NCBI RefSeq assembly: GCF_026210795.1
Contig: NC_089429.1
Coordinates: forward strand, 1,674,001 to 1,738,000
DNA: 64,000 bases
DNA from: Rhizophagus irregularis
Lineage: Eukaryota
Reading direction: 5' to 3'
Shown here: positions 24,815-63,998 of the stretch, piece after piece
How the letters are laid out: every line of letters begins with the position of its first letter
How positions within the stretch are numbered: position 1 is the first letter of the stretch
Program-made: the position numbers and the translations under genes
Notes under the pieces: generated by a model
The model's database searches: none
What the model was told of the DNA's origin: nothing
The model's input: only the letters and a program-made list of their open reading frames with translations

Positions 24815-27742
24815 TGTTACGCAGTAAAAATGTTGCGCAGCAATCATGTGATATAACTGGACCCGTGATGCCGATCAATGTAGCAAATGTCGAATATGTT
24901 TGACATGTTCGATATGTTGCATATGTCCGATATGTAGAATATATAGAATATATGGAACATGTAGCATATATGGGATATATAGAACATGTAGTATATATGG
25001 AATATATAGAACATATAGGATATATAGGATATATAGCATATGTAGCATATGTTAAACATTTTTAGTTTGGAAATTTATGTATATATAGACCTGTAATTAG
25101 ACCTAAATTCAAAATATAGAACGTGTGTGAAGAATTTAATTAATAAAATGTTTACCCTTTAGTATACACCTTAATTTTAAGTTTGGTTTTATATGGTTAA
25201 TCTGCCTTCCCTTATTTGTGTCTGATTGTATGCGCCAGTGTGAAGCGATACTCTATTCACATCTGATTGGATTGATTTTAACATATACGTTGATCCTTAA
25301 AATTACCTTCTGCTTTATTAAATATAAACATTTTTTAATGTATAGCTTATTTTTAAGCTCATAAGAACTGACTCATAACAATTGGTGCCTTCTGCCAGAA
25401 ACATTCCTTACTCCACCCCAAACTCCTTAATATCGCTAAAACCCCTTTACCCTACCATAAATTTCCTACATCCATTTAAAACTTTATGATTAATGACTTT
25501 TAATGATATTTATTTTCGTGGATTTAATCCATTATTAATGAATTTGCCGATATTAAGATAGAAATAGAACTTTCTTAATAGTTTAGAGCATAAATTTAAC
25601 ATTATCAACATTTATAAACTCTTCACAATGATCTAATGATACACACTTCAAATTCCAAATTTATTATTTCGGATTAATAATAATCTTAAAGAAAAGTGGT
25701 TATTCTTAGTATTCTCTTAGGATATTATATTTCAAAAAGAGAAGGTTCTCCTCATGAATTACCAAATATATGTAATTTCCCATCTAACTTATTGTTTAAT
25801 GCACCTGAGAATTATAAGCAAGAAATTTTACCTTTAGATGCTATAGATATAATGTATACTGGCTATTATAATTTTAAACAAGCATAATGTAATTCAAGTG
25901 GCTTAAAGTTGGATCATACATCAAAATTGCAAAGATTTATCTATTTATACTTTGGAAAGATATCCTTCTTTATAACAACGAGATTGATAATAGTCTTTAA
26001 GTGTTTTATTGATGAATTTGAGAATGTATCGCCCATGATGATGCCATTGCTTTAGAATTTCATTTTTAGAGAATACCAGCAGTTAATTGATATAATGTGT
26101 CTGAGTTTTCCGATCTCATGCTCTATTTTTACTTGAAAATTTGGACAGAAATTGGACAAAGGAAAATATTACTGCTATTACGAACCTTCTTCATAACGAT
26201 AGACCATAATGATTTTCTGATAAAAAGAAAGATACCAAAAATTTGTGTAAATCTTCTATTCCATTTGGCAACAACAATGATTGTGTCTTTGACCTTATTA
26301 CATCAATCATCCATTGGACACCTGTAATTTTATCAGAAATACTTTTACTTTCTCAATCAACACAGGACTTACCCTAAAAGCAAATAGTGTATAAGAGACA
26401 ATGCCATGATACAGTATATTTGTAATATAGTATAGGGAAATTGGAGATTTTATTGCTAGAAATTATTGCAATTTTTCCCACATAGCGTAAAAAAGTAGTG
26501 CACTTAAGATCATGATGTAATGGTATGGCCATCAGTTATTGATTGGGCTAATTGAAGTTACCACTCCATAAAGAAGGTATGATACAATAAAACGAAAAAT
26601 CTTGAGGATGAATTACAGTATGTGGACCACAAGACTTGTTAATTAAATGGATAGAATCAAGTAGACGATTTTAGGATAGATTCGCAACTTTTACTTTCTT
26701 CTCTGGAAATTTCATTTTTACTTTAATCCCATCAGTTCAGAATGCTTGAAACTGTATTACCAATGATCGGATCCATAAATATTCATGTAATGAAAAATAC
26801 TTGTATCAAGACCAACCAGCAGTTATCATACCTTATCCTCCATCATTCAGCAAACACATTGGCCATGAAGAAAAATTTTGTGTGTTAAAGGAAGCAATTG
26901 AATGATCAAAACACTTCGGAAATAAAGTCTTATTGTTAACAAATTTATTCTATATGGGCCAATTTCTAGAAAAAAAATGACTGGTACTTTGCAAAGTCAT
27001 TATGCACAGTAATTATCGATACATTACCTTCAACCATTTGAATATTATATATTGAGCTTCCCGGAGTTGTTCAAATTACCAGGACTACCAACCATGATTC
27101 AGCAATTAAGTCATGAAGAATATCAAAAGTTGGTTAGAAATTTTCAACGGGAGTTGAAAACTTGAGCGGGGAGTGATGTTACGCAGTAAAAATGTTGCGC
27201 AGCAATCATGTGATATAACTGGACCCGTGATGCCGATCAATGTAGCAAATGTCGAATATGTTTGACATGTTCGATATGTTGCATATGTCCGATATGTAGA
27301 ATATATAGAATATATGGAACATGTAGCATATATGGGATATATAGAACATGTAGTATATATGGAATATATAGAACATATAGGATATATAGGATATATAGCA
27401 TATGTAGCATATGTTAAACATTTTTAGTTTGGAAATTTATGTATATATAGACCTGTAATTAGACCTAAATTCAAAATATAGAACGTGTGTGAAGAATTTA
27501 ATTAATAAAATGTTTACCCTTTAGTATACACCTTAATTTTAAGTTTGGTTTTATATGGTTAATCTGCCTTCCCTTATTTGTGTCTGATTGTATGCGCCAG
27601 TGTGAAGCGATACTCTATTCACATCTGATTGGATTGATTTTAACATATACGTTGATCCTTAAAATTACCTTCTGCTTTATTAAATATAAACATTTTTTAA
27701 TGTATAGCTTATTTTTAAGCTCATAAGAACTGACTCATAACA
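24815..27742 (+). mobile_element. Non-autonomous LTR retrotransposon, two 566-bp LTRs (24815-25380, 27177-27742)
   Basis: LTRs look identical, with TGTTA...TAACA termini. 4-bp TSD ATAT at 24811-24814 and 27743-27746. PBS-like TGGTGCC just after the 5' LTR and purine tract GAGCGGGGAGTGA just before the 3' LTR. No gag/pol ORF in the 1.8-kb interior. Confidence 0.93.
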
Positions 27743-27792
27743 ATATTGCATATGATTCTAAGATTCTAAAAATAATAATATTAATAAGTTTT

Positions 27793-35221: not shown

Positions 35222-38033
35222 TTATTTTTGACAACATTCATCATCCAAATTATCAACTTTAATATATTTTCCTATTTTAGTTAAAAAAAAAAATATTATA
35301 AAATTGTTGGCGTGAAAAACTATAGATACTATTTATTATGTGCATAAATAAAAAGTTTACTTACTATTTTTTTGAGTTTCATTCGTTTCGTTCTTTAATT
35401 CTTCAAAATTACGCTTTCTTGAAGAATTTGCGGATACAGTTAAGCTATGAGTAGCGGAAGTCAGTGTTCGGAAATGACCTGGTCATTTGACCATTTAAAT
35501 GATTTATGAAATCATTTGTCATTATTCATAATCATTTGTCATTTGGTCATTTCAATCATTTGATTTTGATTGGCTAATATTTATCACATAAATAATCATG
35601 TGACTATAATTAAAAAATAATGAATGTAGTGTAGGCAAAAATCATAATGCTGGCCAAAATTACATTCAAATGACCAAGATCATTTGTCATTTGATCATTG
35701 AAATAACATTTCATTTGTCATTTATCATTTGAATCATTTGGTCATTTCAAGTCATTTGCCGAACACTGGCGGAAGTTGTATTTTGTGTGAATGAACTAAA
35801 AAATATATGAAAATTACTATTTGTTTTATACTATTAGCAATTTACATACAATTAAATATTAATCAATTACCTTTGAATATTATTTATATCAAATTCATAT
35901 TCTTTTGTAATATATCCTAAAAATTAATAAAAGATATCCAAGTTAAATATAAATTTAAAGAAGTAAATTCAATTATTAGTATTATCTGATCGTCTAATTA
36001 ATGCTTCAAGATTTTCATTAATGGCTAATTATTACTTAATAATATAACATACCTTGTTTGACATTAAATGAGATCATTGAAGAAGAATTTATAGTAGAAG
36101 CTTTAGAAATCAATGAACTTAATGCTCTACTTGTAAAAATTGCTTTTGGATGAGGGTTTTCGCTAAATTCGAAACCAAGTTGCTTTAATTGTATTAATTC
36201 CAATCTTTTTTTTTCAGCTTGTTTAAATGTTTCGACTTTATCAAACCGACAAAGATATTCGTGAATAGAACGCTTGACTTCACCAATAGTTGGTCTTTTT
36301 AAAGGGTCAGAATCCCAACATTTTTTCATTAAATTTGCAAAACATTCAGGGGTATCATTTGTAATTTCAGGGCGTTTTCCATCAATAATTTTATAAATAA
36401 GTTCAACATTGTGTTCAATATTAGCAAAAGGTTTACAACCTTTTGTAATTTCCCACATAATCATACCAAAACCATATACATCAGATTCTTTTGAAAATGC
36501 AGCACCTTTGAATATTTCTGGTGCAATATAAGGTATTACTCCATATATTTCATTATTTGATAATGTATTATTCGCAGGTTGTGATAACCCTAAGTCTCCA
36601 ATTTTCCATTGTTGAGAACTTAATAGCATATTTCCACTATGAATATCTCGATGTATAAAATTATTATTATGAATATTTCGCAATCTAAAATGAAACATTT
36701 AATTGTTAATAAACTAATTGTAAATATAGAAAATAGATTAATTCATTAAAATATACAATAAATACCCATATGATATTCCATTTAAAATACACAATTTGTC
36801 GTTCCATCTAAGATTTATAAAGTACTTTTGCAAATAATCATGCAAATTTCCACCTTCTGCATAATTCAATATTAACATGTATTCTTTTGTTATAGGATCT
36901 TGTGTAATGCCATGACAGCCAATAACATTAAAATTGTAATCATAACATTGATAAAGCGATCTTAGCTAAAGAATTAATAAGTCAATTATTACAATAAGTA
37001 TTAAAAAACACATTACAAGTATATAAAATGTAAATATTACCTCATTTAGAAAATGCTTACTGATATTTTGTGAATCACGTAATTTTTTTACAGCAACATC
37101 AGTTCTTCCCCAAGTCGCTTTATAAATAATACTGAATCCTCCTTCTGCTATTTTCTTTAAATTCGTAACTTGAGAATATGGAATCCACACTATTCCTTTG
37201 GTTGGAGGTTTATTACGAATAAACGAATACACTTCATATGGACTGCGAATTGGATTTCTTATACAAATAGAACCGTAAAATTTTGTAGGTTCAAGAAAAT
37301 CAAGTAATTCATCTATAATACAATTTCCACTTCTAATATCTGTAATATCAATTCTAATGAATGAAATTCTTCTGCATTTCTTACATTGAGATTGATCTGC
37401 AATTCCAAAAATTATATTTGTTGTTAAACAATACCTACATCCAGTATAAATTATAAAGCAACGTGAACACCATTTTTGACAATAAGATTTTGACTCTTGG
37501 TGTATATATTTAAATTCTTTATAACAAACTATACATTGGTTACAACTATCCCACCATGGTAAATATAGGGTCGGAATGAACTTTTTATTCAAAGTTGATT
37601 CTACCCATCCAGAAGAAGCCTGATAATCTGACCGATTCTTGTAATTACAAATTTCGCATTCAGCATTATAAATGTGCAAACAATTTGAATTTTTTGTTAA
37701 TACTTGTGTAAAATATAAAATCTCCGAACAATATTCACACCATTCTTGAATGATTGTTGTATTAAAATTATTTCTAGTTGCTTTATGTTTAATACACTGA
37801 GAATTATTTGTATTTATATGTGCATCCAAGTATGTATTATTGCCTGTTATATATTGAACATACCAAAATAAACAATTTTTGCAATATTTTTGCTCAAACA
37901 TGAGTGTCTTGGAGTATTTAATTCCACAATAATCACATTTTTCCTCATCGTTTTTAAAAGGAATAAATAAAACAGGTACAGGACTAGATTTTAACTTTCG
38001 TGTAGGATCAAATGGATTATTATCTGTGTTCAT
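35222..38033 (-). CDS. TKL-like kinase with Cys-rich N-terminus (paralog of 2875-5358); 3' tail exon interrupted by a MITE
   Basis: ORFs 36966-38048 and 36036-36698 plus intervening exons: AEGGFSIIY, VAVKKL, HRDIHSGN, IGDLGL, YIAPE. Small 3' exons follow the same layout as the 2875 locus. Confidence 0.85.
35462..35768. mobile_element. hAT-type MITE (307 bp)
   Basis: TIRs CAGTGTTCGG-AAATGAC / GTCATTTGCCGAACACTG; exact 8-bp TSD GCGGAAGT at 35454-35461 and 35769-35776; internal TCATTTG repeats. Confidence 0.92.
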
Positions 38034-38750
38034 GATGTTGTATTTCAAGAAAATAGTTTATAAAAGTTAAATGTAAAATTATAAAGCAATATTTATATTT
38101 TATGAAGATACAATAAAAATTGAAATTCTACAGAACTTTTCTTTAAAGAATCAAGGATATTCTATATAGAAATTCTATAATTATGCATGTTGAAAATCAT
38201 GCAGAAAACCTGTACTACCAATCTGAAATCATGTGATTTAGGAAAATTGTTGACGATCAAATTTTTTTTTTTTTGACGAACTCAAAAGATAATTTTTTTA
38301 GAAAATATTCAACACTGACAAAAAATTTTTTTTCTTTTTTGGATACTTTCTTTTAAATTCACAGTATAAAATCTTCTTGGATTTAAGAATATCATTCAAT
38401 AAATACATTGCTCGTAACAAGATTATTACATTATCTGTTAAATGCGAAGATCAATAATCATCATTTACTGTATTAAGTCTTACGAACATTACATAACTCT
38501 AGAGGAGGGGATTGTTTTTTTAAATTATGAACGTTAATAGATATTAATAACGTTCCACATCCTTTATTTGATATTATTATGAAAATTTTGCAGATTATTA
38601 ATAACTGTGTACAATGTACATGATTTGTATATGTATATTTTCCTGTGACTTCTCGATTATGTACATCATGCGCATTTTTGTTCTTTAATCAAATATTATT
38701 AATACATATATATCATTAAAATAAAAAATCATTTACATATAATTAAACTA

Positions 38751-44799: not shown

Positions 44800-46434
44800 T
44801 CATTCAATTTCTTTTACATAATTGTTAATATCAATAAACAAATCATAATAATTTAAAACTTGAATATCATATAATTTAAATTCCTCTACTTCATCTTTCT
44901 GAGAGAACAAATCTTCATCCTTTCCAATTAAAGTTTCTAAAATAGCCAAATATTTAACTCTTTTCTCTTTCATAATATATTTTTTTATGTAAGGGACAAT
45001 ACTACTTTTATTTACCCTATTTCTAATTACCAATTTATTTATAAAAGAATTTTGTGAATTTTTTAAAAACATTTCAAGATCATTTGTGTCAAAAATAAGT
45101 TGCAAGTATAGGTATTCTAATTTAAAAGGAAGAATTTGTCCTAAATTTTGTAATATAACAGAACTATTTTCACTATGAAATGATCTTATAAAAAGATAAT
45201 TGAGATTTTGTTTAATATTTTCGATTAAATTTAATCCTAAATTAATATCATTCCGATTATTTATTCCAGCAAATAATTGTAATAACTTAATTTTATTACA
45301 ATATCTTATAGCTAATTCAAATATTTCTTTTAATGATTGTGAATTACCAATGCTACCAAAATTTTCTAAATAATTACCAGATTTTTGTATAAGGAATTTT
45401 AATGATTCAACTTGTAAAATTTCTTTCAAAAATAAAGTTTTTAATTTAAATGGTTTAGTGATATTATTAATTTGTTGAATAAAGTTAGAATCCAGAGAAC
45501 GACATTTAATAATATGAATTGATTCTAAAACATTCAATTGATTGAATACTTCACCTAAAACAGTTATATTTTTAAAATCAATAAAATGAAATATAATTGT
45601 GTTTAATTTATTTGAAAAATTAGGATTTAATAATAAGTGATATGAGAGGGAATAATTACAACTAAATGAAATCTTTTTAAGATTTTCTTGAGAATTAATA
45701 ATTTGTGATAAACATTTTTCGATTGGATAATTAATGTTAAATGATGGAAATAAAAAATAAAGTGATGAAATTGAATTACAATTAGAATGAATACATCCTA
45801 AAATTTTTATTATGTTATCATTCTTAACATAAAAATCCAATCTAAAATTTTTAATATTATAAATGAAATTCGGTTTTTGTAAAATTAATTCAAAAATCTC
45901 ATTAAAATATTTATGTTCTCTATAATAATGTAACGTAATTTCAAAACTATTTAAATTTACTTCATTTTCAATGAATATTAAAAATAATGATTTATAAATT
46001 AATTTTGTAAAGTTTGATTTTTGTGATAATGATAATTTTATATTTTGTATAAAATAATTAGATTTAGTTGAATTTCCGATAGTATCAACCCATTTTACGA
46101 CGGAGGAACAAACTTTAGATGTATTTAAACGTTGAATAAAATTAGAATAATTAAATAACGTATTTGAAGGAAATATATCCTTTTGAGTTAAATATTCTTC
46201 TAGTTTTATTTTGTAATCATCGTTTAGTTTATGTAAGTAAATTTCAATAAAGTGATAATTTTTAGGAAATTTCATTGAAAATGGATCTTCCCATAATAAT
46301 GGGATTGCTATACGACACCATAATCTATTAACTAATATACATGAATGTAATGTTTTATAATCATAATGAAAATATTGTATAGCCTCGTTTACTAACTCAG
46401 GTAAATCTCCTGAAAATAACTTTGAACATGTCAT
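44800..46434 (-). CDS. F-box / RNI-like LRR protein (544 aa, intronless)
   Basis: MTCSKLFSGDLPELVNEAIQYF...LHSCILVNRLWCRIAIPLLWEDPF; paralog of 9525-11168. Confidence 0.87.
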   Translation of the reverse strand: MTCSKLFSGDLPELVNEAIQYFHYDYKTLHSCILVNRLWCRIAIPLLWEDPFSMKFPKNYHFIEIYLHKLNDDYKIKLEEYLTQKDIFPSNTLFNYSNFIQRLNTSKVCSSVVKWVDTIGNSTKSNYFIQNIKLSLSQKSNFTKLIYKSLFLIFIENEVNLNSFEITLHYYREHKYFNEIFELILQKPNFIYNIKNFRLDFYVKNDNIIKILGCIHSNCNSISSLYFLFPSFNINYPIEKCLSQIINSQENLKKISFSCNYSLSYHLLLNPNFSNKLNTIIFHFIDFKNITVLGEVFNQLNVLESIHIIKCRSLDSNFIQQINNITKPFKLKTLFLKEILQVESLKFLIQKSGNYLENFGSIGNSQSLKEIFELAIRYCNKIKLLQLFAGINNRNDINLGLNLIENIKQNLNYLFIRSFHSENSSVILQNLGQILPFKLEYLYLQLIFDTNDLEMFLKNSQNSFINKLVIRNRVNKSSIVPYIKKYIMKEKRVKYLAILETLIGKDEDLFSQKDEVEEFKLYDIQVLNYYDLFIDINNYVKEIE

Positions 46435-49400
46435 GTTGTTAATAAGTACAGAGAAAAGGGGATTCTGAAATTAAAAATATTTATCATGGGAATTTCGCAC
46501 AAGTTATTGTAGATCTAAAAATTTTGTGCGACAAATATCGGCTACCAGAAATGACGTCATTTCTCGAGTCTAGATTACTAGATGTTACACATTTCCTTTT
46601 GGGATAGGCTTAATGCCGACCAGAATTATGTTGTAATTTTAACTTTTCCTATGACCCGGCTCCCGAAAATTAGATGACGTCATTTCTGCCCATCCACTAA
46701 TTTTCCAAAAAGATTTGCACAGTACCACCCGCCGCTTGTCAATAGATAATCGTCATACATATCCGCCGACTTGCAATTTTGTAAATTTATCAGTTTTAAA
46801 TGACATTTCACAACCTGATCAAATCCGTACTAATCATTGATTTTACAATAAATTTCGGTTGAGAGTTAAGTTTTGGGTTTTATTTTTGATCTTTCTTTTT
46901 TTTTTATTGAAACTTTTCTTTTATTAAAGTCAACGCTTTTTTTAATACTAATTTAATTTCTTTTTATATTGGAATGTTTTTACTAATTAATTTTTGTTAA
47001 TTTAGGAAATTGAATAGTGATTTTACAGACTTTTTTTGTATCTGGAGGGAAAGATTTTTATTTTTTTTTTATATTATTAATGTTTGATTTTTTCTTTTTT
47101 CAAGATTACGTAATATTTTTGGTTCTTTTTAGTGAGGTGCTGTAACCATCTAATCTATATATTTTATACTATGTTTATATGCTGATAATTAGTTGATACT
47201 GAATGTTTTAAATTTTTTATTTAATTTTTTTTTAACAAGCGAAGTCTTATGTGAATTTACCTAGTGATTTTCTGCAGATCGACGGATATGATTTCTTCTA
47301 TTTTTTGCATTTCTATTTGTATTAATTTATTAGATTTACAATAATTAAATCAATTGTTATATTTTGTAAAATAAAAAATAATTGAATCCAAAGAACCAAT
47401 TTTTTTATTAAAAAAATCATTTTTAAATCAAACTTCGTTACATTAAGTATTCAGAAATATACCATACAATAATCCAGGTCGGAACCTGGCTAAAACCTAT
47501 AAAAATATTGAAGAAATATTAATAAAATGTTGCAAAAAAAAAAAAAATTTGCAGATTTTGAAGTTAAATATTTGCAATTTTATAATTCCGTAATAGTCCA
47601 CAATTTTGTTAATTGCGATATCACAATTGATACAGTATTGATTCATCGCAAAAATAATCAATTATTTTTTGAATTTTTATTAATACAAGTAAAAAAAAAA
47701 ATTTTCATTAATAAAATTTTTTAAAAGAATAATTTTGTGTTAAAAAAAACGAAATCAGATGGTTAATTTGATTTGTTTTTTAATAAAAATTTTATTTTGA
47801 ATCTTATCAATAAATTTTATTTACTATCAATAAAAAGTAATAAAATTTCTCTAGAATCACTAACTTCGGACTTCGGAGAAGACTTCTTTAGCTTTTTGTC
47901 CGTAACCACGTTCCCCTGGTTTCTTTCTGTGACGACTCTTTCGAAGACCTTTTGCCAGGAGAATTCTTCTCTGGTGTTTGTTGACCATTCTTTGGCTATC
48001 TAGATATTTATCCAAATATGTGAAGGGTTACCAATCATCCTCGTGGGTTTCCAAAGCCTGCAATCTTGAGATGCTACTTATTTTGTTTTTTGATTGTCAT
48101 CGAGATAGTATTCCTCCATTCCGTTAATTTAAACTTTTTTTCGGAATCAAGGATATTGGTATATCGTAAATCATAATGACTCGGATATTCGGCTTTATTT
48201 CTTTCGAGTAATGATGGATTTGCGCATCGTGCTTTTTTGGACGATTTGGTTGGGTGTTGATCATTCTTTTCTTTCCCTACCGTGACTCGGAAATTTCATC
48301 CTCATGACTTTTGATTGGTTCATCTCCTTTTCTAATTCTATTACGTTCGGTAGTAATGTAGTACTCTCCTGTTACGGTTGCTGCGGTGATTGCGTTTCAT
48401 TTTGTTCTTTTCGTCCAAAGAAGAACCTGTAGCGAGGTTAGCTTTATGTGTTCTATATCCTATGCAAGCGCTGTCGCTGGCATAGGCCTCTTTCATTAGC
48501 ACGGCAAGGCAGCGTTTAGAGGGCTAGCTTGTGGTCCAAAGGATTTTACAAGTTCTCTTGGCATCATCTAATAATATTCTATAAAACTCTTTGCATATTC
48601 TTTCATAGATTTTTTTCCTTCCGGACAGTTTGTTCCATGGTTATATGTTGTTTTGGCATTTTTTTAAAAAAAAATAAAAATTTTTTTTTACTGCGGTTTG
48701 TTAATAAATATTAAACAAACAGGAAAGAAATTTTTTTTTATTTCATTTCCTAGTATACAGATATCTGACAAAAACTAGCATTAATTATTATTGAAAGGTG
48801 TCTTACATATTATTTAATATGAGTATAAAAAATCTAACAAAAATAAATTAATCTATTTTATTTTTTAATTATCACTAAATTATAAGGATTGAATGATCTT
48901 TTCTGATTTTTTTTCCTTCCCAATTTAATGGTTTTTAACTTATCTCATTAAATTAAAATTATTATTAATACTACAACAGTGTTACATTTCATCAAATTCG
49001 GATACAATACATATAAATTAAGCTTAATTAACTTTAATATTTTTCTAATTTTTGCCAACCGTAATTATATTAATATTATTTGTTATTTTACTCATTTATG
49101 AAAAATATAATAGCAAGATAAAATAAAACGTCAAAAAAAATTAATTATTGGTTTACTATATTTTTTGGTTAATTTTTGCGTTAAATAACTTGCATATGAG
49201 TGTATATTAAATTATAATTATAAAATTCTAAATTATATATATATATATTTTTTAGACACTTTATAGCGTAAATTTGAATGGTTTAAACATAATTAAGGTT
49301 CGTTGTTTTAAAAAAAGGTTGCACTTTTTTCGTGGTTGCACTACATTAGATGTATCACGGTCATACTTGTCGCTCATATTCCAAAAAGGAAATTACAATA

Positions 49401-49670
49401 ATAAATGATCGGCGAGTACATTGTTACAATTTCCTTTTTTGAAAATGAACGACCAAAACACAATCATGTTTATTATTAATTTTTTTTAAAACAATATGAA
49501 TCTTATTTACTATTATAACAGTTATGTTGCCGATTTATTATATTTTTGGAAAATTAAAACCGGAAACTCCCAGATAAGATCTTTGTGTAAATGATATACA
49601 ATACTTATATATATTCGCATCCCTAAATATTACAAATTATTTTCCACTCATTTATTTTGTATTTTGTAAT

Positions 49671-52600
49671 TAATCAGGATGTAAGTAAATCATTTTTTAA
49701 AATCAAAGTTTCATAATTATTTTGTCATTAGATAACACTTCATTTCCCTAATCAATTACTGATCAATTATAATTCAATTAATCAGGGAGTAAGTAAATTA
49801 TTTTAAAATCAAAGTTTAATAATGATTTTGTCATTAAATAACACATCATTTCTCTAATCATCACAATTCAATTAAATTACCAGTGAGTGAGTATTAACTT
49901 TAATAATAATTTTTAACATTAAAGTTTCTGTCATTAAATAACACATCATTTTTTTAATAAAATCATTGATTAATCATAATTCAATTAAATTACCAGACGG
50001 TAAATGCATCATTTTAAAATCAAAGTTTCATAACAATTTTATCATTAATCATTCTCTAATCAATTGCTGATCAATCACAATTCAATTAAATTACCAGACT
50101 GTGAGTATAAGATTTTGTGATTATTTTTAAAATCAAAGTTTATCATTGAATAACACTTCATTTCTAATCAATCACAAATCAATTAAATTACCAGATGGTA
50201 GGTGCATCATTTATAAAACCAAAGTTTCATAATAATTTTGCCATTGAATAACACTTTATTTCTCTAATAAATTAATCAATCATAATTCAATCATCAGGGA
50301 GTAAGTAAATTATTTTAAAAATTAAAGTTACATAATGATTTTGCAATCCATTTCCCTAATCAATTACTGATCAATCATAATTCAATCATAATTCAATCAT
50401 AATTCAATCATCAGGGAGTAAGTAAATTGTTTTTAAACCAAAGTTTCATAATGATCTTGTCATTAAATAACACTTCATTTCTCTAATCAATTACTGATCA
50501 ATCACAATTCAATTAAATTTACCAGACTGTGAGTATAAAATTTCATGATCGTTTTCAAAATCAAAGTTTTATAATGATTTATCATTGAATAACTCTTCAT
50601 TTCACTAAACAATTATTGATCAATCACAATTCAATCATCAGGGAGTAAGTAAATTATTTATAAAATCAAAGTTACATAATGATTTTGCAATTCATTTCCC
50701 TAATCAATTACTGATCAATCATAATTCAATCATAATTCAATCATCAGGGAGTAAGTAAATTGTTTTTAAACCAAAGTTTCATACCGATTTTGTCATTGAA
50801 TAACACTTCATTTTTCGAATCAATTATTGATCAATTACAATTCAATTAAATTACCAGATCGTGAGTATAAAATTTCATGATTATTTTTAGAATCAAAATT
50901 TCATAATGATTTTGTCATTAATAACATGTAATTTCTCTAATCAATTATTGATCAATCAAATTCAATTAAATTACCAGACTGTGAGTATCAGATTTCATAA
51001 TCATTTTTAAATCAAAGTTTCATAATGATTTTATCATTGAATAACACTACATTTCTCTAATAAATTACTGATCAATCATAATTAAATTAATCAGAAAGTA
51101 AGTAAATTATTTTTAAAATTAAAGCCTCATAATAATTTATCATCAAATAACACATCATTTCTCTAATCAATTGCTGATTAATCACAATTTAATTAAATTA
51201 CCAGAGGGTAAGTGCATCATTTTTAAAATCAAAGGTTTATAAATGATTTTATCATTTTATCATTGAATAATAGTACTTCATTTTTCTAATCAATTACTGA
51301 TCAATCACAATTCAATTAAATCACCAGATTGTAAGTATTGGATTTCATGATCATTTTTTAAAATCAAAGTTTTATAATGATTTTGCCATTAAGTAATATT
51401 TCATACTCTAATCAATTACTGATCAATCACAATTCATTTAATTACCAGACTGTAAGTATAAGATTTCATGATCATTTTAGATCATTTTTAAAAATAAAGT
51501 TTCATAATGATTTTATCATTTAATAACACTTCATTTCTCTAATAAATTATTGACAAATAACAATTCAATTAAATTACCAGGCCGTAAGTATAAGATTTCA
51601 TTATTGTGTTTAAAACAAAGTTTCATAATGGTTTTATCATTGAATAACACTTCTCTTATCAATTGCTGATCAATCACAATTCAATTAAATTACCAGACCG
51701 TGAGTATCAGCATTTTTAAAACAAAAGTTTCATAATGATTTTGCATTGAATACTTCATATTTCTAATCAATTATTAATTAATAACAATTCACAAAATTAC
51801 CAGAACGTAAGTATTTAATATTATGATCATTTTTATAATCAAAGTTTCATAATAATTTTATCATTAAATAACACTTAATTCTTCACAATTCAATTAAATT
51901 ACAGAATGTGGGTATCAGATTTCATGATCAATTTTAAATCAAAGTTTCATAACAATTTTGCCATTAAATAACATTTCATTTCTCTAATCAATTATTGATC
52001 AATCACAATTCATTAAATTACAAGACCGTGAGTATCAAATTTCATGATCACTTTTAAAGTCAAAGTTTTATAATGATTTTATCATTGAATAATACTTCAT
52101 TCCTCTAATTAATTATTGATCAATCACAATTAAATACCAGACCGTGAGTACTAAGATTTCAGGATCATTTTTAAAATCAAATGATTTTATCATCAAATAA
52201 CACTTCATTTCCCTAACTAATTCTTGATCAATCACAATACAATTAAATTACCAGACCGTGAGTGCTAAGATTTCATGATCATTTTTAAAATCAAAGTTCA
52301 TAATAATTTATCATTAAATAACATTTCATTTCTTCAATCAATTACTGATCAATCACAATTCAATTATATTACCAGACCGTAAGTATAAAATTTCATGATA
52401 ATTTTTAAAATCAATGTTTCATTTCATAATGATTTTATCATTGAATAACACTTGATTTCTCTAATCAATTACTGATTAATCACAATTCAATTAAATTGCC
52501 AGACCGTAAGTATAATAATTTTAAAATCAATGTTTCATAATGATTTTATTATCAAATAACACTTCATTTCTCTGATTAATTACTGATAAATCGCAATTCA

Positions 52601-55600
52601 ATTAAATTACCAGACTGTGAGTATAAGATTTCATGATCATTTTTAAAATCAAATGTTCAAAATGATTTTATCATTAAATAATACTTCATTTTTCTAATCA
52701 ATTACTAATCAATCACAATTCATTAAATTACAAGACCGTGAGTATAAGATTTCATAATTATTTTAAAATCAAAGTTTTATAATGATTTGTCATTAAATAA
52801 CACATAATTTCTCCAATCAATTATTAATTGATCACAATTCAATTAAATTCCCAGAGGGTAAGTGTATCATTTTTAAAATCCAAATTTTATAATGAATTGT
52901 TATTAAATAACACATTCTCTAATCAATAATTTAATTAAATTACCAGACGGTAAGTACATAATTTTAAAATCAAAGTTACATAATGATTTTATCATTGAAT
53001 AACACTTCATTTCTCTAATAAATTACTGATTCATTAAATTACCAGACTGTAAGTATAATTATTTTTAAAATCAAAGGTTTAAAATGATTTTATTATTAAA
53101 TAACACTTTATTTCTCTAATAAATTACTGGTTATTTACAACTCAATTAAATTACCAGACCGTAAGTATAAGATTTCATGATCATTTTAAAATCAAAGTTT
53201 CATAATGATTTTATCATTAAATAACACTTCATTTCTATAATCAATTACTGATTAATCACAATTCAATTAAATTACCAGATTGTAAGTATAGGATTTCATG
53301 ATCATTTTTTAAAATCAAAGTTTTATAATGATATTATCATTAAATAAAACATCATTTCTCTAATTAATTATTGATTAATCACAATCCAATTAAATTACCA
53401 GAGGGTAAGTACATCATTTTTAAAATCAAAGTTTTATAATGATTTGCTATTAAATGACACATTATTCTCTAATTAATAATCAATTAAATTACCAGAACGT
53501 AAGTGCATCATTTTTAAATCAAAGGTTTATAATGATTTTATCATTGAATAACACTTCATTTCTCTAATCAATCATTGGTCAATCATAATTCAATTTATCA
53601 GAAAGTAAGTAAATTATTTTTCTTATAATAATTTGTCATTAAATAATATTTCATTTCTCTAATCAATTACTGATTAACCCCAATTCAATTAAATTACCAG
53701 AATGTGGGTATAAGATTTCATGATCATTTTTAAAATCAAAGTTTCATAATAATTTTGCCATTAAATAACACTTCATTTCTCTAATTAATTATTGATCAAT
53801 CACAATTCATTAAATTACAAGACCGTAAGTATCAAATTTAATTATCATTTTTAAAGTCAAGGTTTAATAATGATTTTATCATTAAATAATACTTCACTTC
53901 TCTAATCAATTACTGATCAATCACAATTCAATTAAATTACCAGATCGTGAGTACTAAGATTCATGATTATTTTTAAAATCAAATGATTTTGTCATTAAAC
54001 AACACTTTATTTCTCTAATCAATTATTGATCAATCACAATTCAATTAAATTATCAGACCGTGAGTACTAAGTTTTTATGGTCATTTTAAAATCAAAGTTT
54101 CATAATGATTTTATCATTAAATAACATTTCATTTTTTTAACCAATTACTGATCAACCACAATTCAATTAAATTACCAGACCGTGAGTACATGATTTATAA
54201 TAATTTTTAAAATCAGAGTTTCATAATGATTTTATTATTGAATAATACTTTATTTTTCTAATAAATTACTGATTAATCCCAATTCAATTAAATTACCAGA
54301 CCGTAAGTATAAAATTTCATGATAATTTTTAAAATCAATGTTTCATTTCATAATGATTTTATCATTAAATAACACTTGATTTCCCTGATTAATTATAAAT
54401 TACAATTCAATTAAATTACCAGACTGTGAGTATAAGATTTCATGATCATTTTTAAAATTAAATGTTCAAAATGATTTTGTTATTAAATAATACTTCATTT
54501 CTCTAATCAATTACTAATAAATCACAATTCATTAAATTACCAGACCGTGAGTATAAGATTTCATTATTATTTTGAAATCAAAGTTTTATAATGATTTTGT
54601 CATTAAATAATACTTCATTTTTCTAATCAATTATTGTTTAATCACAATTCAATTAAATTCCCAGAGGGTAAGTGTATCATTTTTAAAATCCGAATTTTAT
54701 AAAGAATTGTTACTAAATAACACATTCTCTAATCAATAATTTAATTAAATTACCAGACGGTAAGTGCCATTTTTAAAATTAAAGTTACATAATGATTTTA
54801 TCATTGAATAACACTTCATTTCTCTAATCAATTACTGATCAATTACAATTCAATTAAATTACCAGACTGTAAGTATAATTATTTTTAAAATCAAAGGTTT
54901 AAAATGACTTTATTAATAAATAATACTTTATTTCTCTAATAAATTACTGGTTAATCACAATTCAATTAAATTACCAGACCGTAAGTATAAGATTTCATGA
55001 TCATTTTAAAATCAAAGTTTCATGATTGTTTTATCATTAAATAACACTTTATATCTCTAATCAATTACTGATCAATCACAATTAAATTAAATTACCAGAA
55101 TGTGAGTATAAGATTTCATGATCATTTTTAAAATCAAAGTTTCATAATGCTTTATCATTGAGTAACACTTCATTTCTCTAATCAATTACTGATCAATCAT
55201 AATTCAATTAATTAGAAAGTAAATAAATTATTTTTAAAATTAAAGTCTCATAATAATTTGTCATTAAAACAACACATAATTTCTCTAATCAATTGCTAAT
55301 TAATCACAATTCAATTAATCAGAAAGTAAGTAAATTATTTTTAAAATTAAAGTCTCATAATAATTTGTCATCATTAAGTAACACATCATTTTTCTAATCA
55401 ATTGCTGATTAATCACAATTCAATTAAATTACCAGAATGTGAGTATAAGATTTCATTATCATTTTTAAAATCAAAGTTCCATAATGATTTTATCATTAAA
55501 TAAACACATCATGGCTCTAATCAATTACTGATCAATCACAATTCATTAAATTATCAAACCGTGAGTATAAAATTTCATGATCATTTTAAAATCAAAGTTT

Positions 55601-57510
55601 TATAATGATTTTGACATTAAATAACACTTTATCTCTCTAATCAATAACTGATCAATCACAATTAAATTAAATTACCAGAATGTGAGTATAAGATTTCATG
55701 ATTATTTTTAAATCAAAGTTTCATAATGATTTTATTATTTAATAACACTTCATTTCCTCTAATCAATAACTGGTCAATCACAATTCAATTAATCAGAAAG
55801 TAAGTGAATTATTTTTTAAAATTAAAGTTCCATAATAATTTGTTATTAAATAATACAACATTTTTCTAAACAATTACATTCAATTAAATTACCAGTGAGT
55901 GAGTATTAACTTTAACAATTATTTTTAAAATTAAAGTTTCTGTCATTAAATAACATTTTTCTAATTAATCACTGATTAATCACAATTCAATTAAATTACC
56001 AGACGGTAAATGCATCATTTTAAAATCAAAGTTTCATAGTGATTTTATCATTTAATAACACATCATTTCTCTAACCAATTACTGGTCAATCACAATTCAA
56101 TTAATCAGAAAGTTAGTAAATTATTTTTTAAAATTGAAGTCTCATAATAATTTGTCATTAAATAATACATCTTTTTTCTAATCATTTACTGATTAACAAT
56201 GATTCAATTAAATTACCAGTGAGTGAGTATTAAACTTTAATAGTAATTTTTTAAAATTAAAGTTTCTGTCATTAAATAACACATCATTTTTCTAATCAAT
56301 CACTGATTAATCATAATTCAATTAAATTACCAGACGGTAAATGCATCATTTTAAAATCAAAGTTTCATAATGATTTTATTATTAAATAACACTTCATTCT
56401 CTAATCAATTGCTGATCAATCACAATTTAATTAAATTACCAGACCGTGAGTATAAGTTTTCATAAGCATTTTTAAAATTATGATTTTGTCATTAAATAAC
56501 CTGATCAAATACTGATCAATTACAATTCCAGTCGGTAAGTATTCATTTTTAAAATTAGAGTTTCAATAATGATTTGTTATTAGATAATTCATCATTTTTC
56601 TAATCAATTGCTGATCAATCACAATTCAATTAAATTACCAGTCGGTAAGTGTTCATTTTTAAAATCAGAGTTTTATAATGATTTATTATTAGATAATTCA
56701 TCATTTCTCTAACAAATTGCTGATCAATCACAATTCAATTAAATTGCCAGTCGGTAAGTATTTATTTTTTAAAATCAAAGTTTCATAATGGTTTGTTATT
56801 AGATAACTGAATTCATTATTTCTCTAACAAATTGCTGATTAATTACAAATTCAATTACATTACCAGTCAGTAAGTATTCATTTTTTAAAATTAAAATTTC
56901 ATAATGATTTGTTATTAGATAATTGAATTCATCATTTTTCTAATCAATTACTGATTGATAATCACAATTTAATAACATTACCAGTGCGTGAGTATAAGAA
57001 GATTTTATGATCATTTTTAAAAATCAAAGTTTCATCATGATATTGTCATTAAATAACACTTCATTTCTCCTGATTAATTACAATTCAATTAAATTATTAG
57101 TATGTAAGTATAGGGTTTCATGATCATTTTCAAAATCAAAGTTTCATAATTATATTTTATCATTAAATAACACTTCATTTCTCTAATCAATTACTAACCA
57201 TTATAATTTAATTAATCAGAAAGTAAGTGAATTATTTTTAAAATTAAAGTCTCATAATAATTTGTCATTAATAATACATCATTTCTCTAATCAATTGCTG
57301 ATCAATCACAATTCAATTAAATTACCAGAGGGTAAGTGCATCATTTTCAAAATAAAGTTTTATGATGATTTGTTATCAAATAACACATTATTCTCTAATC
57401 AATTACTGATCAATTACAATTCAATTAAATTACCAGAGGGTAAGTGCATCACTTTTAAAATCAGAGGTTCAATATGATTTTATCATTAAATAACACTTCA
57501 TTTCTCTAAT
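49671..57510 (+). repeat. Tandem array of 70 units (spacing 89-132 bp), each an intron plus a 3-nt microexon
   Basis: Consensus GTRAGTA...AAAATCAAAGTTTCATAATGATTTTATCATTAAATAACACTTCATTTCTCTAATCAATTACTGATCAATCACAATTCAATTAAATTACCAG|NNN. By my count 70/70 units keep GT and 69/70 keep AG, spaced exactly 3 nt apart. Confidence 0.9.
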
Positions 57511-60428
57511 CAATGGGTAATTTTATAATCTACAATCATCACAAATTAGCATTAGTAATCAAGGAGAACTTCAAAGTTAGTAAATTTGATTATATTAATT
57601 AACTTTTAAATATTAATAATTTATTTTATTAATCTGAAGGAAAATTGGAAGATGAAATAAACAAACTATCAGTACAAAGACAAATTCTGGCAGAAGATTA
57701 TAAAGAGCAAATAAAAGTTCATATTAGAGAAACTGATAAAAAATATCACAATCAAAATGTTCAATTGCAAGAAGAGATTATTAAAAGACAAGAAAAAATT
57801 AAAGAAAAGGAAAATGAAATAGCAACACTTCAGCAAAATTCTCAAAAATTAACCAAAGAAAAAAATGAACTAGAAGATAAATTAAATAAAAAAATAAGTG
57901 AGTTAGAAATTGAATTAACAAAAAAGGAAAAAATTATTGAAGTAGATAAAAAAGTCATTTATAAATATGAATACTCAAACAACTTATTACAAGAACAAAA
58001 GGAAAAATTGGAAAATGAATTAAGCAATTTAAAAGGCCAAAATCAAATTATCAAGGAAGATTTAATTCGAATTCAAGAGCATGTAAAGGTTAATACAGAA
58101 ATCAGCCAAAAACAAAATTCTCAATTACAAGAACAGATAGTTAAAAAACAAGAAATAATTAAACAAAAGGATAATGAAATAACAGCTCTTCAGCAAAGTT
58201 CTCAAAATTTGAACAAAGAAAAAACTGAACTAAAAGAGGAAATAACAGCTCTTCAGCAAAGTTCTCAAAATTTGAACAAAGAAAAAACTGAACTAAAAGA
58301 GGAAATAACAGCTCTTCAGCAAAGTTCTCAAAATTTGAACAAAGAAAAAACTGAACTAAAATTGGAAATAACAGCTCTTCAGCAAAGTTCTCAAAATTTG
58401 AACAAAGATAAAACTGAACTAAAATTGGAAATAACAGCTCTTCAGCAAAGTTCTCAAAATTTGGTTAAAGAAAAAACTGAACTAAAAGTGGAACTAACAG
58501 TAAAGGAAAGAATTATTGAAGTGGCAAATGAAAACTTAAACAACTTACAAGAAGAAAAAGGAAAATTGGAAAATGAAATAAACAAATTAAAGGAGAAAAA
58601 TCAAACTATTGAGAAAGATTTAATCCAAGTTCAAGAGCAAATAAAAGCTAATATAAAAATCAACCAAAAACAAAATGATCAATTACTACAAGAAAAAATT
58701 AAACAAAAAGAAAACGAAATAGCAACACTTCAACAAAATTCTCAAAACATAACTAAAGAAAAAACTAGACTAGAAGAGGAATTGGATAAGAAAATAAGCG
58801 AATTAGAAATTGAATTAGTAAAAAAGGAAAAAATCATTGAAACAGCTAATAAAGAAACTGCCTATTATCATGAAAGATCAAATCACTTACAAGAAGAAAA
58901 AGAAGAATTGGAAGATGAACTAGAGACACTGGAAAAGGAACTAAATCATGAAATAAAAATATTAATCAAAAATAAAGAAGAAAAACAACAAAAAATAAAT
59001 GAATTAGCTGAAGAAATGGAAAAAGAAAGATTGAGGCTAGTAAAAGTAGAAGAGGAATTAATTAAGGCTGATGAAATATTAAAAAATACTCAAATTGAAT
59101 TAGAACTTAGACAAAGTAGTGAAGAGCGGGAATTAATTATTTCTAAGGTTAAAGAATTGAAGAATAATATCAAGCAACTGGAAATTAAAAATGAAGAAAG
59201 TAAACAAAGTTTAGTTAACACACAAAGTAAATTGTCTGAAATTGAAGCCATACCATTTATCACTGATAAAATAAATAAACTTACCAAAAACAAAATTAAG
59301 CAAAAAAAAGAGTTAGAAAAGCTGAAGGAAGAATTGAAAAGTAATCAAGAACAATTAGAAAATATGGAAAAGAAGCTTAATAATAAGTTAAAGGAAATGG
59401 GGCAAATAGGTAAATTTACTATTAATATTAGTAGCAAGAATATAGCTAAACTAGGAGAATTGGTTAAAGAAAAAGAAGAATTAATCGAAAAAATTGACAA
59501 ATTAAAAAAAAATAAACTAGAAAAAGAAGAAAAAATAAAAAAACTTATGGAGAAAATTCAAGATGAAGACTGGAAGAAAAAGTGTCAAGGATTTCAGGAA
59601 ATAATAGACAAGAAAAATCAGATAATAGAAGAATTTACTAAAAAACTACCTAGAAAAATATTACTAATTGGTTGCACAGGTAGTGGTAAATCTACTTTGG
59701 CTAATGTATTGACTAGTACTAACAAATTTAAAGAAAGCAACTATTCTATTAGCCAAACTAAAACAATCCAAAGATGTCAATTTGTTGAAAAGGAGATAAT
59801 CTATGAAGTAATTGATACTATTGGCTTAAATGATACTAAACTAAGTCGGGAAGATATTTTATATAAATTAGCTGAGTTGGCTCGTGAATTAAAGGATGGT
59901 TTGCATCAAATTCTTTTAGTTAATAATGGCCGCTTTACTGAGGAAGAAATCCAAGTTTATAAAATACTAGAAACTGTTCTTTTTGATGAAAATGTGAAAA
60001 ACTATACCACAATTGTACGAACTAACTTTGAGAAGTTTGAAGATGAGGAAGAATGCCAAAACAATCAAAGATTATTAATTGAAGAAAAATCTCGAATAAT
60101 GGCCATAATTAAAAACTGTAATTTTTTTATTCATTTAGATAATCCTTCAAATGATATTAGTAAAAGAAAAAAGTCAAAAGCTATCCTATTAAACCATTTG
60201 AATAAGCAGATAGGAGTTTACAGGCCAAGTAACTTGGAAAAATTAAATGAAAGAATTATGGATTATATGAAAAATGAGAACCGAGAACTAGTTATTCAGG
60301 AAATGGATAAGCATGTTTCGAAATTTGAAGATAAATTATCTAATTTAGGACAAATTGGCTCATTTATTTCTGGATTAGCAGCAGTAGCAGCTATTATTGT
60401 TCCATTGGTTTCTTGTAATATAATGTAG
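49679..60428 (+). CDS. Predicted ~1006-aa protein: microexon-encoded Pro-rich N-terminus + long coiled coil + AIG1/GIMAP GTPase + C-terminal hydrophobic segment and CaaX
   Basis: ATG formed as AT(49679-49680)|G(49786); 3-nt exons up to 57437-57439; 26-nt exon 57550-57575; terminal exon 57640-60428. All junctions are in frame, with no stop. Confidence 0.72.
57640..60428 (+). CDS. Terminal exon: coiled coil + AIG1/GIMAP-family GTPase domain (~59650-60230)
   Basis: ILLIGCTGSGKSTLANVL (P-loop), SQTK (G2), VIDTIG (G3), GRFTEEE (AIG1 conserved box); ends GLAAVAAIIVPLVSCNIM*. The track ORF begins at TTG with an in-frame TAA at 57630-57632, so upstream exons are needed. Confidence 0.92.
58176..58490 (+). 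repeat. Coding 63-bp tandem repeat x5 (EITALQQSSQNLNKEKTELK[E/L/V])
   Basis: Five nearly identical 21-aa (3-heptad) copies within the coiled coil. Confidence 0.95.
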
Positions 60429-63228: not shown

Positions 63229-63998
63229 TAGAGGTTTGGACCGGTTAAGCTTAACCGGTTAATTAACCGGTTAAAACATTTGTTAACTGGTTACAGCAAA
63301 TTTCAAAATATACGGGACACTTGAGAAATTTGATTGTCGGGTTGTCGGGTAGCCGGGTTACTCGGCAGTAGGTTGTTTATTAGAAAAGTATAAATAACAC
63401 GTGACGAGTATAATGAATAGTAGTATATCAGATTATATAATAACCTACTGCCGGCTACCCGACAACCCGACAATCAAATTTCTCAAGTGTCCCGTATATT
63501 TTGAAATTTGCTGTAAAAAACAATTTTTAACCGGTTAAATTATCCGGTTAAATTATCCGGTTAAATTAATCGGTTAAATTAATCGGTTAAATTAACTGGT
63601 TAAAATACTGAAAAATATTTGTAATTCTGGCCAAATTTACAGTGCCGGCCAGAATTATAAATCACGGGACTTCAGATAAAAGTTTAGCCACCAGGTTAGA
63701 TACTAACGACGAGGTGGTGGAATTTTTGTGTTATATAAAATTCATAATGCGGGCCAAAATTCATAGTGCCGGCCAGACAATTTGGCCTGAATTTCGTCTT
63801 TCAGCTAAAGTTTCGTTTCGATTAGTTAGAGTTTTGATCTGGCCTAATTTTGGCCGGGATTAAAAATATATTTGATGCTAATCCTGGCCGAATTTTAATG
63901 CTGGCTAGGATTGAGTTTTAACCGGTTAATTAACCGGTTAAAGGTTTGGTTAACCGGTTATTAACCGTTAAGACTTTTTGGACCGGTTCCAACCTCTA
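63229..63998. mobile_element. hAT-type non-autonomous element with AACCGGTT subterminal repeats
   Basis: TIRs TAGAGGTTTGGACCGGT / ACCGGTTCCAACCTCTA. Left flank is GCATAAAA and the right flank begins GC at the window end, consistent with an 8-bp TSD. Confidence 0.8.
63294..63513. mobile_element. Nested TA-flanked foldback MITE with ~70-80-bp TIRs
   Basis: CAGCAAATTTCAAAATATACGGGACACTTGAGAAATTTGATTGTCGGGTTGTCGGGTAGCCGG is matched by its reverse complement ending at 63513; TA on both sides. Confidence 0.85.

Follow-up and report, generated by a model that had tools for sequence, protein, structure and literature searches.

Long runs of codon-sized exons are already published for the Tuber nank genes, which encode a NACHT-ANK product and for which alternative splicing is reported (PMC4986451, PMC13449251, PMC3689799). 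In Schistosoma, the MEGs encode secreted proteins from exons of 3-81 bp separated by introns of 0.2-5 kb (10.1101/2023.06.21.545858). Homologous spliceosomal introns in unrelated genes are known from the introner-like elements of Dothideomycetes, which form hundreds of scattered, near-identical copies (PMC4457414), and the profilin ligand in the FH1 region of mDia1 is a double IPPPPPLPG repeat with a 3-residue spacer (PMC10163920).

Here we describe a locus of Rhizophagus irregularis within a 64,000-nucleotide stretch of contig NC_089429.1 (the window; positions are counted from its first letter, and all features lie on the plus strand). With a probability of roughly 0.7, the 8-kb repeat at this locus forms the 5' portion of a GTPase gene of AIG1/GIMAP type that is expressed, with a microexon N-terminus and a duplicated proline docking tail. 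It resembles Tuber nank in its run of one-codon exons, in its setting in a fungal P-loop NTPase-class gene of a symbiotic fungus and in skips that keep the frame; both have tens of consecutive 3-nt exons, here 69 predicted and 20 read in RNA. Unlike the nank genes of Ascomycota, it is an AIG1 GTPase gene of Glomeromycotina with 69 such exons in a row, a split start codon, phase-2 exons straddling codons, and an intron family that turns up again in a kinase gene and a SPRY-TPR gene. For nank, alternative splicing is reported; here the consensus at the two array ends shows full inclusion. What is new relative to nank is the lineage and gene class, the phase 2 and length of the run, its RNA support, and the occurrence of one cassette family in unrelated genes. 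As in the Schistosoma MEGs, the coding region is split into very short symmetric exons, but here all are 3 nt long, the introns are paralogous and ~110 nt, the product is a predicted intracellular GTPase, and the array supplies 70 of 1007 predicted residues instead of the bulk of a small protein.

The microexon array and its RNA

The array, at 49678-57439, consists of 70 YAG-NNN-GT units whose spacers are homologous introns of 86-129 nt. YAG-NNN-GTRRRT-type sites numbered 74 in it (nested ones counted), compared with a mean of 0.29 and a maximum of 3 in 200 shuffles; its minus strand had none and the other 56 kb had five. The first-pass annotation had counted 70 units, which holds for splice-type units, but unit 1 is the tail of the first exon, which spans 117 nt or more (49564..49680), so that there are 69 microexons. 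This first exon comprises the 5' UTR and, at its end, positions 1 and 2 of the start codon; a contig of run X3 ran without differences over 49564-49681 and continued with triplets from unit 2, and the frame was taken from the joined triplets. Between 49681 and 57549 lie the 69 microexons of three bases each (units 2-70, 49786-57439), together with 70 introns, of which introns 1-69 are homologous and in phase 2. They are followed by a 26-nt exon (57550..57575), covered by reads and one contig between two joints, a phase-1 GT..AG intron of 64 nt outside the cassette family (57576..57639), and the last coding exon of 929 codons (57640..60428).

Donor GT was present in 69/69 introns and acceptor AG in 68/69. 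The sole exception was the CAA before the triplet of unit 53 (55558..55560), in place of CAG; a predicted skip of this unit would lose one proline and keep the frame. CTRAY occurred near the 3' end of 63/69 introns, and no alternative AG was found within the final 40 nt of any of the 69. The top-letter share was 0.49 at triplet position 2 and 0.32 at position 3, against a mean of 0.90 over 107 intron columns, one of which fell below 0.49. Among the three readings of the joined triplets, phase 2 alone lacked stops, with ATG split across intron 1, and the downstream exons fixed this frame independently; the frame chosen earlier is therefore the sole open one. All array exons are symmetric (3 nt, phase 2-2), and because of this length the frame survives whenever a cassette is gained, lost or skipped: 69/69 computed single-exon skips stayed in frame, none created a stop and 65/69 removed one residue cleanly. 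Since the initial A of 54/69 triplets is the wobble base of the preceding codon, a cassette brings nearly the same residue wherever it is placed. By inspection, the N-terminus predicted from the phase-2 reading carries charged residues.

The joined triplets of units 2-11 and 61-70 (20 exons read) matched RNA letter for letter, in agreement with the first-pass proposal that the units are spliced exons. At the 3' end, five polyA RNA reads of run X24 (30/30 consensus letters) and one X1 contig (26/26 letters) carried the triplets through unit 70 before 57550. Support at the 5' end came from a single contig in one of four runs (X3, only presumed to be RNA), which matched units 2-11 at 30/30 letters and then ran on for 159 more unlike letters, enough to span units 21-48. 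The joint of the 64-nt intron (57575-57640) was seen in three of four runs (X1, X23 and X24), X5 giving an unspliced stretch, and RNA reads lay over the first 530 nt of the final coding exon. Public models start the gene elsewhere and X1 also yielded an unspliced contig (depth 14, vs 34 for the spliced one), which would fit a non-coding satellite in which splice-like signals were passively copied. However, the joined triplets in reads and contigs at both ends refute a satellite for units 2-11 and 61-70; we consider it extremely improbable. It is very probable that the N-terminal ~70 residues of an AIG1/GIMAP-type GTPase are written one per three-base exon. Exons 12-60, with the proline block of units 21-48, would then also be included in the mRNA, for a gene of 72 exons and a predicted protein of 1007 aa. 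Splicing would proceed by intron definition, with the introns removed one after another.

The last coding exon encodes a long coiled-coil-like region, the AIG1 GTPase, a hydrophobic tail and a CaaX-like end. A 63-nt coding tandem repeat at 58176..58500 has 5.2 copies here and 2 to 5 in other records. The AIG1 domain (Pfam PF04548, 59655..60206) scored 63.9 bits against a cut-off of 27, and its nearest solved structures are GIMAPs (GIMAP7, E 1.5e-9; GIMAP4, GIMAP2 and GIMAP1); Pfam matches were to AIG1/MMR_HSR1, with none to NACHT, ankyrin or FH2 in the product. As in GIMAP/IAN proteins, the Pfam AIG1 match above cut-off is accompanied by a P-loop (G1, GCTGSGKS), a G3-like DTIG and a hydrophobic C-terminal tail, here a 19-mer (Kyte-Doolittle 2.3) with terminal CNIM (60354..60428) that is predicted to be a membrane anchor. 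Unlike in that family, the GTPase is C-terminal, after ~670 coiled-coil-like residues and the microexon N-terminus, and no canonical NKxD was found in its sequence. The product is predicted to be a coiled-coil GTPase anchored in the membrane, with a disordered tail rich in proline and a short amphipathic helix. In an AIG1 tree of 43 of 44 rows (P0041, without a long match, was left out), the gene grouped in one clade with R. irregularis sequences, surrounded by fungal and endobacterial ones, and the tree resolved no direction of transfer. Sequence hits at 99% likewise point to R. irregularis. None of 11 public protein models carried the array-encoded N-terminus, public gene models placing the gene start elsewhere, and public protein searches returned no spliced product; among 1445 shorter candidates, the sole match was this locus's own fragment.

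AIG1/GIMAP GTPases are immunity-associated, and the array could act mainly as a generator of diversity in the manner of Tuber nank, with variable one-codon skipping giving many N-termini on an immunity-type GTPase, which is compatible with the main reading. The open frame of all 69 single skips and the related arrays in kinase and SPRY-TPR genes favor such a role, with weak hints in the 0.9 agreement of the X24 loose ends (30 letters each) and in the breaking off of both the X1 and X3 contigs inside the array. Contig breaks have other causes, however, and the consensus holds all 20 exons read at the array ends in their proper sequence, with no skipped form seen among them; diversity as the main function is rather doubtful.

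Duplication history of the cassettes

According to the first-pass annotation, units 21-32 recur as units 37-48 about 1.8 kb (16 units) further on. With unit 18 at 51581, the two blocks begin at 51905 (unit 21) and 53701 (unit 37), an offset of 1796 nt or 16 units, and unit 48 ends at 54980; the copies occupy 51905..53278 and 53701..55098. The best 11-intron window at offset 16 had a mean distance of 0.085, compared with 0.176 over all windows, and order shuffles (n = 500) gave a lowest mean of 0.126, with 0/500 as low as 0.085, which bears out the recurrence. Over 12 intron positions the offset-16 partner was the nearest at eight, second at three and 19th at one; intron 25 paired with intron 42 (offset 17). 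The tree of intron units, a check set beforehand, likewise paired 21-32 with 37-48, 7/12 block pairs being sisters in the maximum-likelihood tree (UFBoot 92-100) and 7/12 in the NJ tree. The rare variants said to be shared were confirmed: GTGGGT donors occurred in 2/70 units (21 and 37), both introns ending in CAAG, and the AGG-ACG introns 29 and 45 were each 89 nt with three mismatches. A third AAG acceptor, at unit 28, was absent from unit 44.

Two proposed smaller duplications held incompletely. In the EEL-EES block (units 7-9 and 10-12, 50298..50860), introns 7/10 (distance 0.048, UFBoot 100) and 8/11 (0.083) paired, but 9/12 did not, neither being within the other's best three. The NER-NER block (units 55-57 and 58-60, 55797..56336) gave three close pairs (55/58 0.113, 56/59 0.075, 57/60 0.106), but intron 59 was nearer to distant unit 3 (0.071) and intron 60 to unit 4 (0.051) than to their local partners, the E-R cassette pair being close in sequence to units 3-4 as well.

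In the other check set beforehand, intron subtype tracked exon triplet: the nearest intron flank predicted the codon dinucleotide of 34/68 exons, compared with 8 expected. Because the intron halves beside an exon track its triplet, the copied unit is an exon-centred cassette. Flank tracking and block duplication together support the earlier view that the protein evolves by duplicating intron-plus-codon cassettes, and cassette copying is probable, with good confidence, as the mode of array change. The array may change through unequal crossing-over combined with longer-range copying of these cassettes.

The doubled proline motif

Copy 1 of the large block encodes five prolines followed by LPGR, giving IPPPPPLPG and one PxxPxR; copy 2 has one Pro-to-Ser difference (unit 39) and the second PxxPxR. 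The motifs lie at residues 25 and 41, and both also fit the narrower PPLPxR. PxxPxR is the class II SH3-ligand consensus, and the two motifs had been taken as such ligands. Nevertheless, PxxPxR appeared in 55% of open triplet-order shuffles (36% without the second copy, 26% within one 16-unit period) and PPLPxR in 6-11%, and the two copies represent one duplication event; an SH3-ligand reading is therefore unlikely.

The five-proline run was found in 0.6-5% of shuffles and PPPPLPG, the proline run with LPG and a pattern picked post hoc, in 0-0.2%. Copy 1 equals the profilin-binding repeat of mDia1 FH1 at 9/9 residues and copy 2 at 8/9, a likeness that was noticed post hoc and is one of motif without homology. 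Both proteins have two tandem copies, but this one has no FH2 domain. The copies stand 7 residues apart here and 3 in mDia1, and the second copy here has just three consecutive prolines. The earlier suggestion that the block resembles a binding motif rather than random sequence is not supported as far as PxxPxR goes, which is at chance level; the rarer feature is the proline run with LPG (0.1-0.2%, post hoc).

The same gene structure could also carry the proline block as a neutral by-product, the tail being a spacer without a specific partner. Prolines are cheap in the array because ACC, which reads Pro in phase 2, is the commonest cassette (16/69 triplets); PxxPxR is at chance, copy 2 exchanged a Pro for Ser and unit 53, also Pro, lost its AG. 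Purifying selection on the block was not detected in a test of low power (1/36 exon vs 93/1216 intron letters differ, Fisher p 0.51). On the other hand, introns 22-26 (distance 0.155) are almost as distant as random pairs (0.178), so the proline run is no recent homopolymer burst, as units 62-64 (0.116) may be, and the shuffle rates of the five-proline run and PPPPLPG are low. Neutrality is a serious possibility, somewhat short of even odds. The doubled motif likely arose by one duplication of the cassette block and would form a docking tail for polyproline readers. Judged from sequence, the chances of a specific binding role are about even, and the predicted partner is more probably profilin than SH3.

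Related cassettes in other genes

The cassette profile matched 3 of 114 loci among the matches listed (a kinase locus twice, L026 and L084, and a SPRY-TPR locus, L037) and none in the reversed controls. The 114 loci came from a generic three-exon pattern and comprise one viral and at least 113 metagenome stretches, many of them simple repeats such as GTAA/GTCA runs; the cassette-specific pattern matched no stretch of the prokaryote genomes or of the viral contigs. The kinase and SPRY-TPR cassettes, on metagenome contigs, are again in phase 2, and the four loci with cassettes showed only 3-nt-spaced phase-2 runs. Best intron identities to these loci were 75-95%, one L037 intron reaching 95% with intron 2 of the array and 93% with its intron 32 (a gap taken as a single event). 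The nearest flank in the array shared the triplet of 2/21 L026 exons and 0/3 L037 exons; triplet identity is thus not carried across genes, which rules out a shared intron-to-codon code. Among the 120 kinase matches listed, 6 had the Cys motif and none had an N-terminus like the L026 prediction.

Near-identical introns in unrelated genes recall the introner-like elements of Dothideomycetes, and the introns could have been inserted singly into ready-made coding sequence. In contrast to the scattered copies of those elements, the introns here lie head to tail, exactly 3 nt apart and all in phase 2, and are copied with the exon. Their halves track the adjacent triplet, whole blocks are duplicated, no solitary cassette was found in the rest of the 64-kb window, and no conserved intron fold was detected: with z values between -1.29 and 0.81 (none below -1.3), 0/12 introns folded more stably than their shuffles. 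Single insertion is most unlikely.

Taking the copied cassette as the unit, we tentatively propose that AM fungi carry genome-wide, a portable family of one-codon cassettes (a triplet flanked by two intron halves, in phase 2 throughout). These would travel among genes that share no ancestry but belong to expanded families (AIG1 GTPase, kinase, SPRY-TPR), build new protein termini one residue at a time and allow stop-free combinatorial skipping, here independently spelling a formin-type profilin ligand, and annotations would miss them.

The locus offers a natural example, backed by RNA, in which both ends of a 69-exon run have at least 10 consecutive 3-nt exons. It belongs to a much-studied mycorrhizal fungus for which many RNA runs are public, and it opens the spliceosome's handling of splice sites three bases apart, in order and fidelity, to study; the narrower SH3-ligand claim contributes little. 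As the introns are a dated record for each residue, the birth of the motif (one duplication, one substitution and one lost acceptor) can be traced residue by residue. Since unrelated genes share the cassette family, satellite-masked repeats of Glomeromycotina may conceal coding termini in many kinase and GTPase genes.

A probable run of 69 one-codon exons at the front of a GTPase gene

The stretch at 49678-57439 of the window, called a 100-121-nt satellite by Tandem Repeats Finder, breaks down into 70 units, each made of an acceptor, three bases and a donor, with units 2-70 as predicted three-base exons (microexons). The introns (1-69, each numbered after the unit it follows) are homologous, 86-129 nt long and at a mean pairwise distance of 0.178; GT is present in 69/69, AG in 68/69 and CTRAY near the 3' end in 63/69, with no second AG in the last 40 nt of any of the 69. 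The splice-site pattern occurs 74 times in the array, nested sites counted; 200 shuffles averaged 0.29 occurrences, and the array's minus strand has 0. Triplet letters 2 and 3 are the most variable unit positions (top-letter shares 0.49 and 0.32); the 107 intron columns average 0.90, a single one falling below 0.49.

When the triplets are joined and read in all three ways, stops are absent only with phase-2 introns. This reading opens with an ATG split across units 1 and 2, and phase 2 is set independently by the exons downstream of the array, namely a 26-nt exon (57550-57575) and, beyond a 64-nt intron, a last exon of 929 codons. Because the first triplet letter is A in 54/69, a cassette (intron half, triplet, intron half) encodes a nearly identical residue wherever it is placed. 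Computed single-exon skips remove one residue cleanly in 65/69 cases, also alter a neighbour in 4/69 and create a stop in 0/69. In the last exon, a long coiled-coil-like region precedes an AIG1 domain that scores above the Pfam cut-off and whose relatives with solved structures are GIMAPs; behind it come a hydrophobic 19-mer and, at the terminus, CNIM, which we take to be a CaaX-like end. Database matches at 99% are from Rhizophagus irregularis. In the predicted spliced protein of 1007 aa, residues 2-17 have a helical hydrophobic moment above 98% of shuffles. The microexon-coded N-terminus was found in 0/11 public sequences of the gene and its paralogues (P0002-P0007, P0045-P0049), and P0049 contains the 26-nt exon but behind a different start. 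A 21-residue coding repeat at 58176-58500 has five copies in the window, two in P0002, two in P0003 and four in P0004, a spread that is length polymorphism among records. In a tree of the AIG1 domain (59655-60206), proteins of Mollicutes-related endobacteria are intermixed with fungal ones.

Sequencing runs placed on the window provided reads or contigs from both ends of the array. On 57516-58170, the joint of the 64-nt intron appears in polyA reads of X23 (3) and X24 (5) and in a contig of X1; X5 carries this stretch unspliced. In five X24 reads, a loose end ahead of 57549 has a 30-letter consensus that matches the triplets in full, starting at the final letter of unit 60 and ending with unit 70, and the X1 contig supplies 26 of the 30. 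The 5' evidence at 49250-49700 is one contig from 1 of 4 runs: placed on 49564-49681, this X3 contig continues for 159 further letters, the 30 displayed being units 2-11 plus the opening letter of unit 12. An ordinary first exon thus ends with unit 1. With loose-end letters compared by eye with the predicted triplets, 20/69 microexons were read directly, ten consecutive at either end. From its length, we infer that the X3 contig crosses the proline block (units 21-48) and reaches about unit 54. The RNA nature of X1 and X3 is presumed, and alongside its spliced contig (depth 34), X1 holds an unspliced one (depth 14). The first exon of the X3 contig includes 91 nt (49587-49677) that run from GTAAAT to a cassette-like acceptor and may be an optionally removed intron of the 5' UTR; an out-of-frame upstream ATG lies inside it at 49591.

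Probable duplication of exon-centred cassettes

The first-pass annotation had proposed that units 21-32 recur as units 37-48, and the introns bear this out. The best 11-intron diagonal of the array has offset 16 and starts at intron 21, with a distance of 0.085 against 0.176 +/- 0.015 for all 11-intron windows and a minimum of 0.126 over 500 order shuffles. The offset-16 partner ranks nearest for 8/12 introns and second for 3/12; intron 25 pairs instead with intron 42, its offset-16 partner ranking 19th. The intron pairs flanking the block (20/36 and 33/49) are far apart. Sister pairs number 7/12 in the ML tree (UFBoot 92-100), 7/12 by NJ and 9/12 when pairs from the two trees are combined. 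The offset-16 pairing, the intron 25 exception and the trees together show one block duplication, followed by a rearrangement within the proline run. The smaller duplications proposed within units 7-12 and 55-60 were recovered in part, for the pairs 7/10, 8/11, 55/58, 56/59 and 57/60, but units 59 and 60 are closest to units 3 and 4, 56 units distant. Since unit 14 is likewise closest to unit 51, cassettes are copied over long distances too.

Intron subtype tracks the exon triplet, with the dinucleotide (triplet letters 2 and 3) predicted by the nearest flank in 34/68 exons (expected 8). With known duplicate pairs and near pairs omitted, intron 5' parts after the same codon dinucleotide are more alike (0.188 vs 0.233, p 0.0002), as are 3' parts ahead of it (0.168 vs 0.194, p 0.002). 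Neither cross comparison of intron part and dinucleotide reached significance (p 0.065 and 0.073). An intron-to-codon code was rejected, since across genes the nearest flank matches the triplet in 2/21 cases at one metagenome locus (L026) and 0/3 at another (L037). The flank-triplet association shows shared ancestry of exon-centred cassettes. Growth by duplication of intron+codon cassettes, as first suggested, is well supported by block pairing and flank tracking, and RNA backs both ends of the array.

Elsewhere in the window, two copies of a 568-nt stretch (24815-25382 and 27177-27744), lying 2.4 kb apart, are 100% identical, which reflects either a very recent duplication or an assembly artefact. 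Two long single-exon paralogues (9468-11165, plus strand; 44803-46470, minus strand) are 78% alike over 1721 nt; a Pfam search of the latter gave no match, and we presume both to be F-box-like. Near the window end, the sequence at 63240-63561 is 75% self-inverted and contains many ACCGGTTAA repeats.

The proline-rich segment

PxxPxR occurs at residues 25 and 41 of the predicted protein and had been likened to an SH3 ligand. Among order-shuffles of the triplets (about 4,600 of 20,000 were open and used for motif rates), it appears in 55%, in 36% without the second copy and in 26% within one period, so this resemblance does not exceed chance; PPLPxR appears in 6-11%. A five-proline run is found in 0.6-5% and PPPPLPG in 0-0.2% of shuffles, both patterns having been picked post hoc. 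Copy 1 (units 21-32) contains IPPPPPLPG, the mDia1 FH1 repeat employed as a profilin-binding peptide (PMC10163920). A fresh homopolymer as origin of the proline run was rejected because introns 22-26 differ from one another nearly as much as random pairs do (0.155 vs 0.178). No excess exon conservation was detected between the two copies (1/36 exon vs 93/1216 intron letters differ, p 0.51). We consider a specific binding role about as likely as not; profilin would rank ahead of SH3 domains as candidate partner, and the formin-like motif would be the better lead.

Cassettes in other genes and comparison with known systems

A generic three-exon pattern was found in at least 113 metagenome stretches and 1 viral one. 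A profile of the window introns matches 3 of these 114 listed loci, with 0 matches in reversed controls and 0 in the remainder of the window; the cassettes of all three are predictions from DNA sequence. L026 has 21 triplets, whose phase-2 reading is open directly into a kinase gene. As the best named relatives of this kinase, from Rhizophagus and Glomus, reach at most 59%, the locus probably belongs to a different species of Glomeraceae; L084, 99.8% alike over 551 nt, represents the same locus. At L037, cassettes in phase 2 by inspection lie behind an SPRY-TPR gene, with introns 79-95% alike to window introns. Our guess is that ectopic recombination between arrays might have carried cassettes into unrelated genes. 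By reading-frame inspection, the window holds three kinase-like genes (3077-4996 and 13433-14801, plus strand; 36039-38057, minus strand), and the cassette is absent from all three.

Two further loci, L073 and L099 (each considered whole), carry another family of low-GC cassettes spaced 3 nt apart, which are about 72% alike from one locus to the other and are not matched by the window-intron profile; in L073 cassettes lie on both sides of an ordinary exon of about 200 nt. A loose parser found varied-triplet chains in contigs of 39-45% GC: L009 (693-2814, 32 sites), L075 (1202-4680, 49), L033 (126-1433, 20) and L042 (225-1411, 17), the phase-0 reading being the sole open one in L033 and L042. 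A 14-site chain in L040 (66-1294, minus strand; 56% GC contig) would add a Pro/Gly/Thr-rich tail after kinase-like reading frames, and would then be a second case of prolines spelled by one-codon exons.

Tens of alternatively spliced codon-sized exons are described for the Tuber nank genes, credited to Iotti 2012 (PMC4986451, PMC13449251, PMC3689799). MEGs and introner-like elements each resemble the window array in single features. Literature on Glomeromycotina microexons, 3-nt or codon-sized exons and Rhizophagus AIG1, from a coverage with few subscription papers, reports no such arrays in these fungi, nor do the exon/intron passages of 10.1101/2022.10.19.511543 and PMC8786786 mention them; the supplements of the former may hold the correct gene model. 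New here are the lineage, the gene class, the codon-straddling phase, the predicted run of 69 consecutive exons and an intron family common to unrelated genes.
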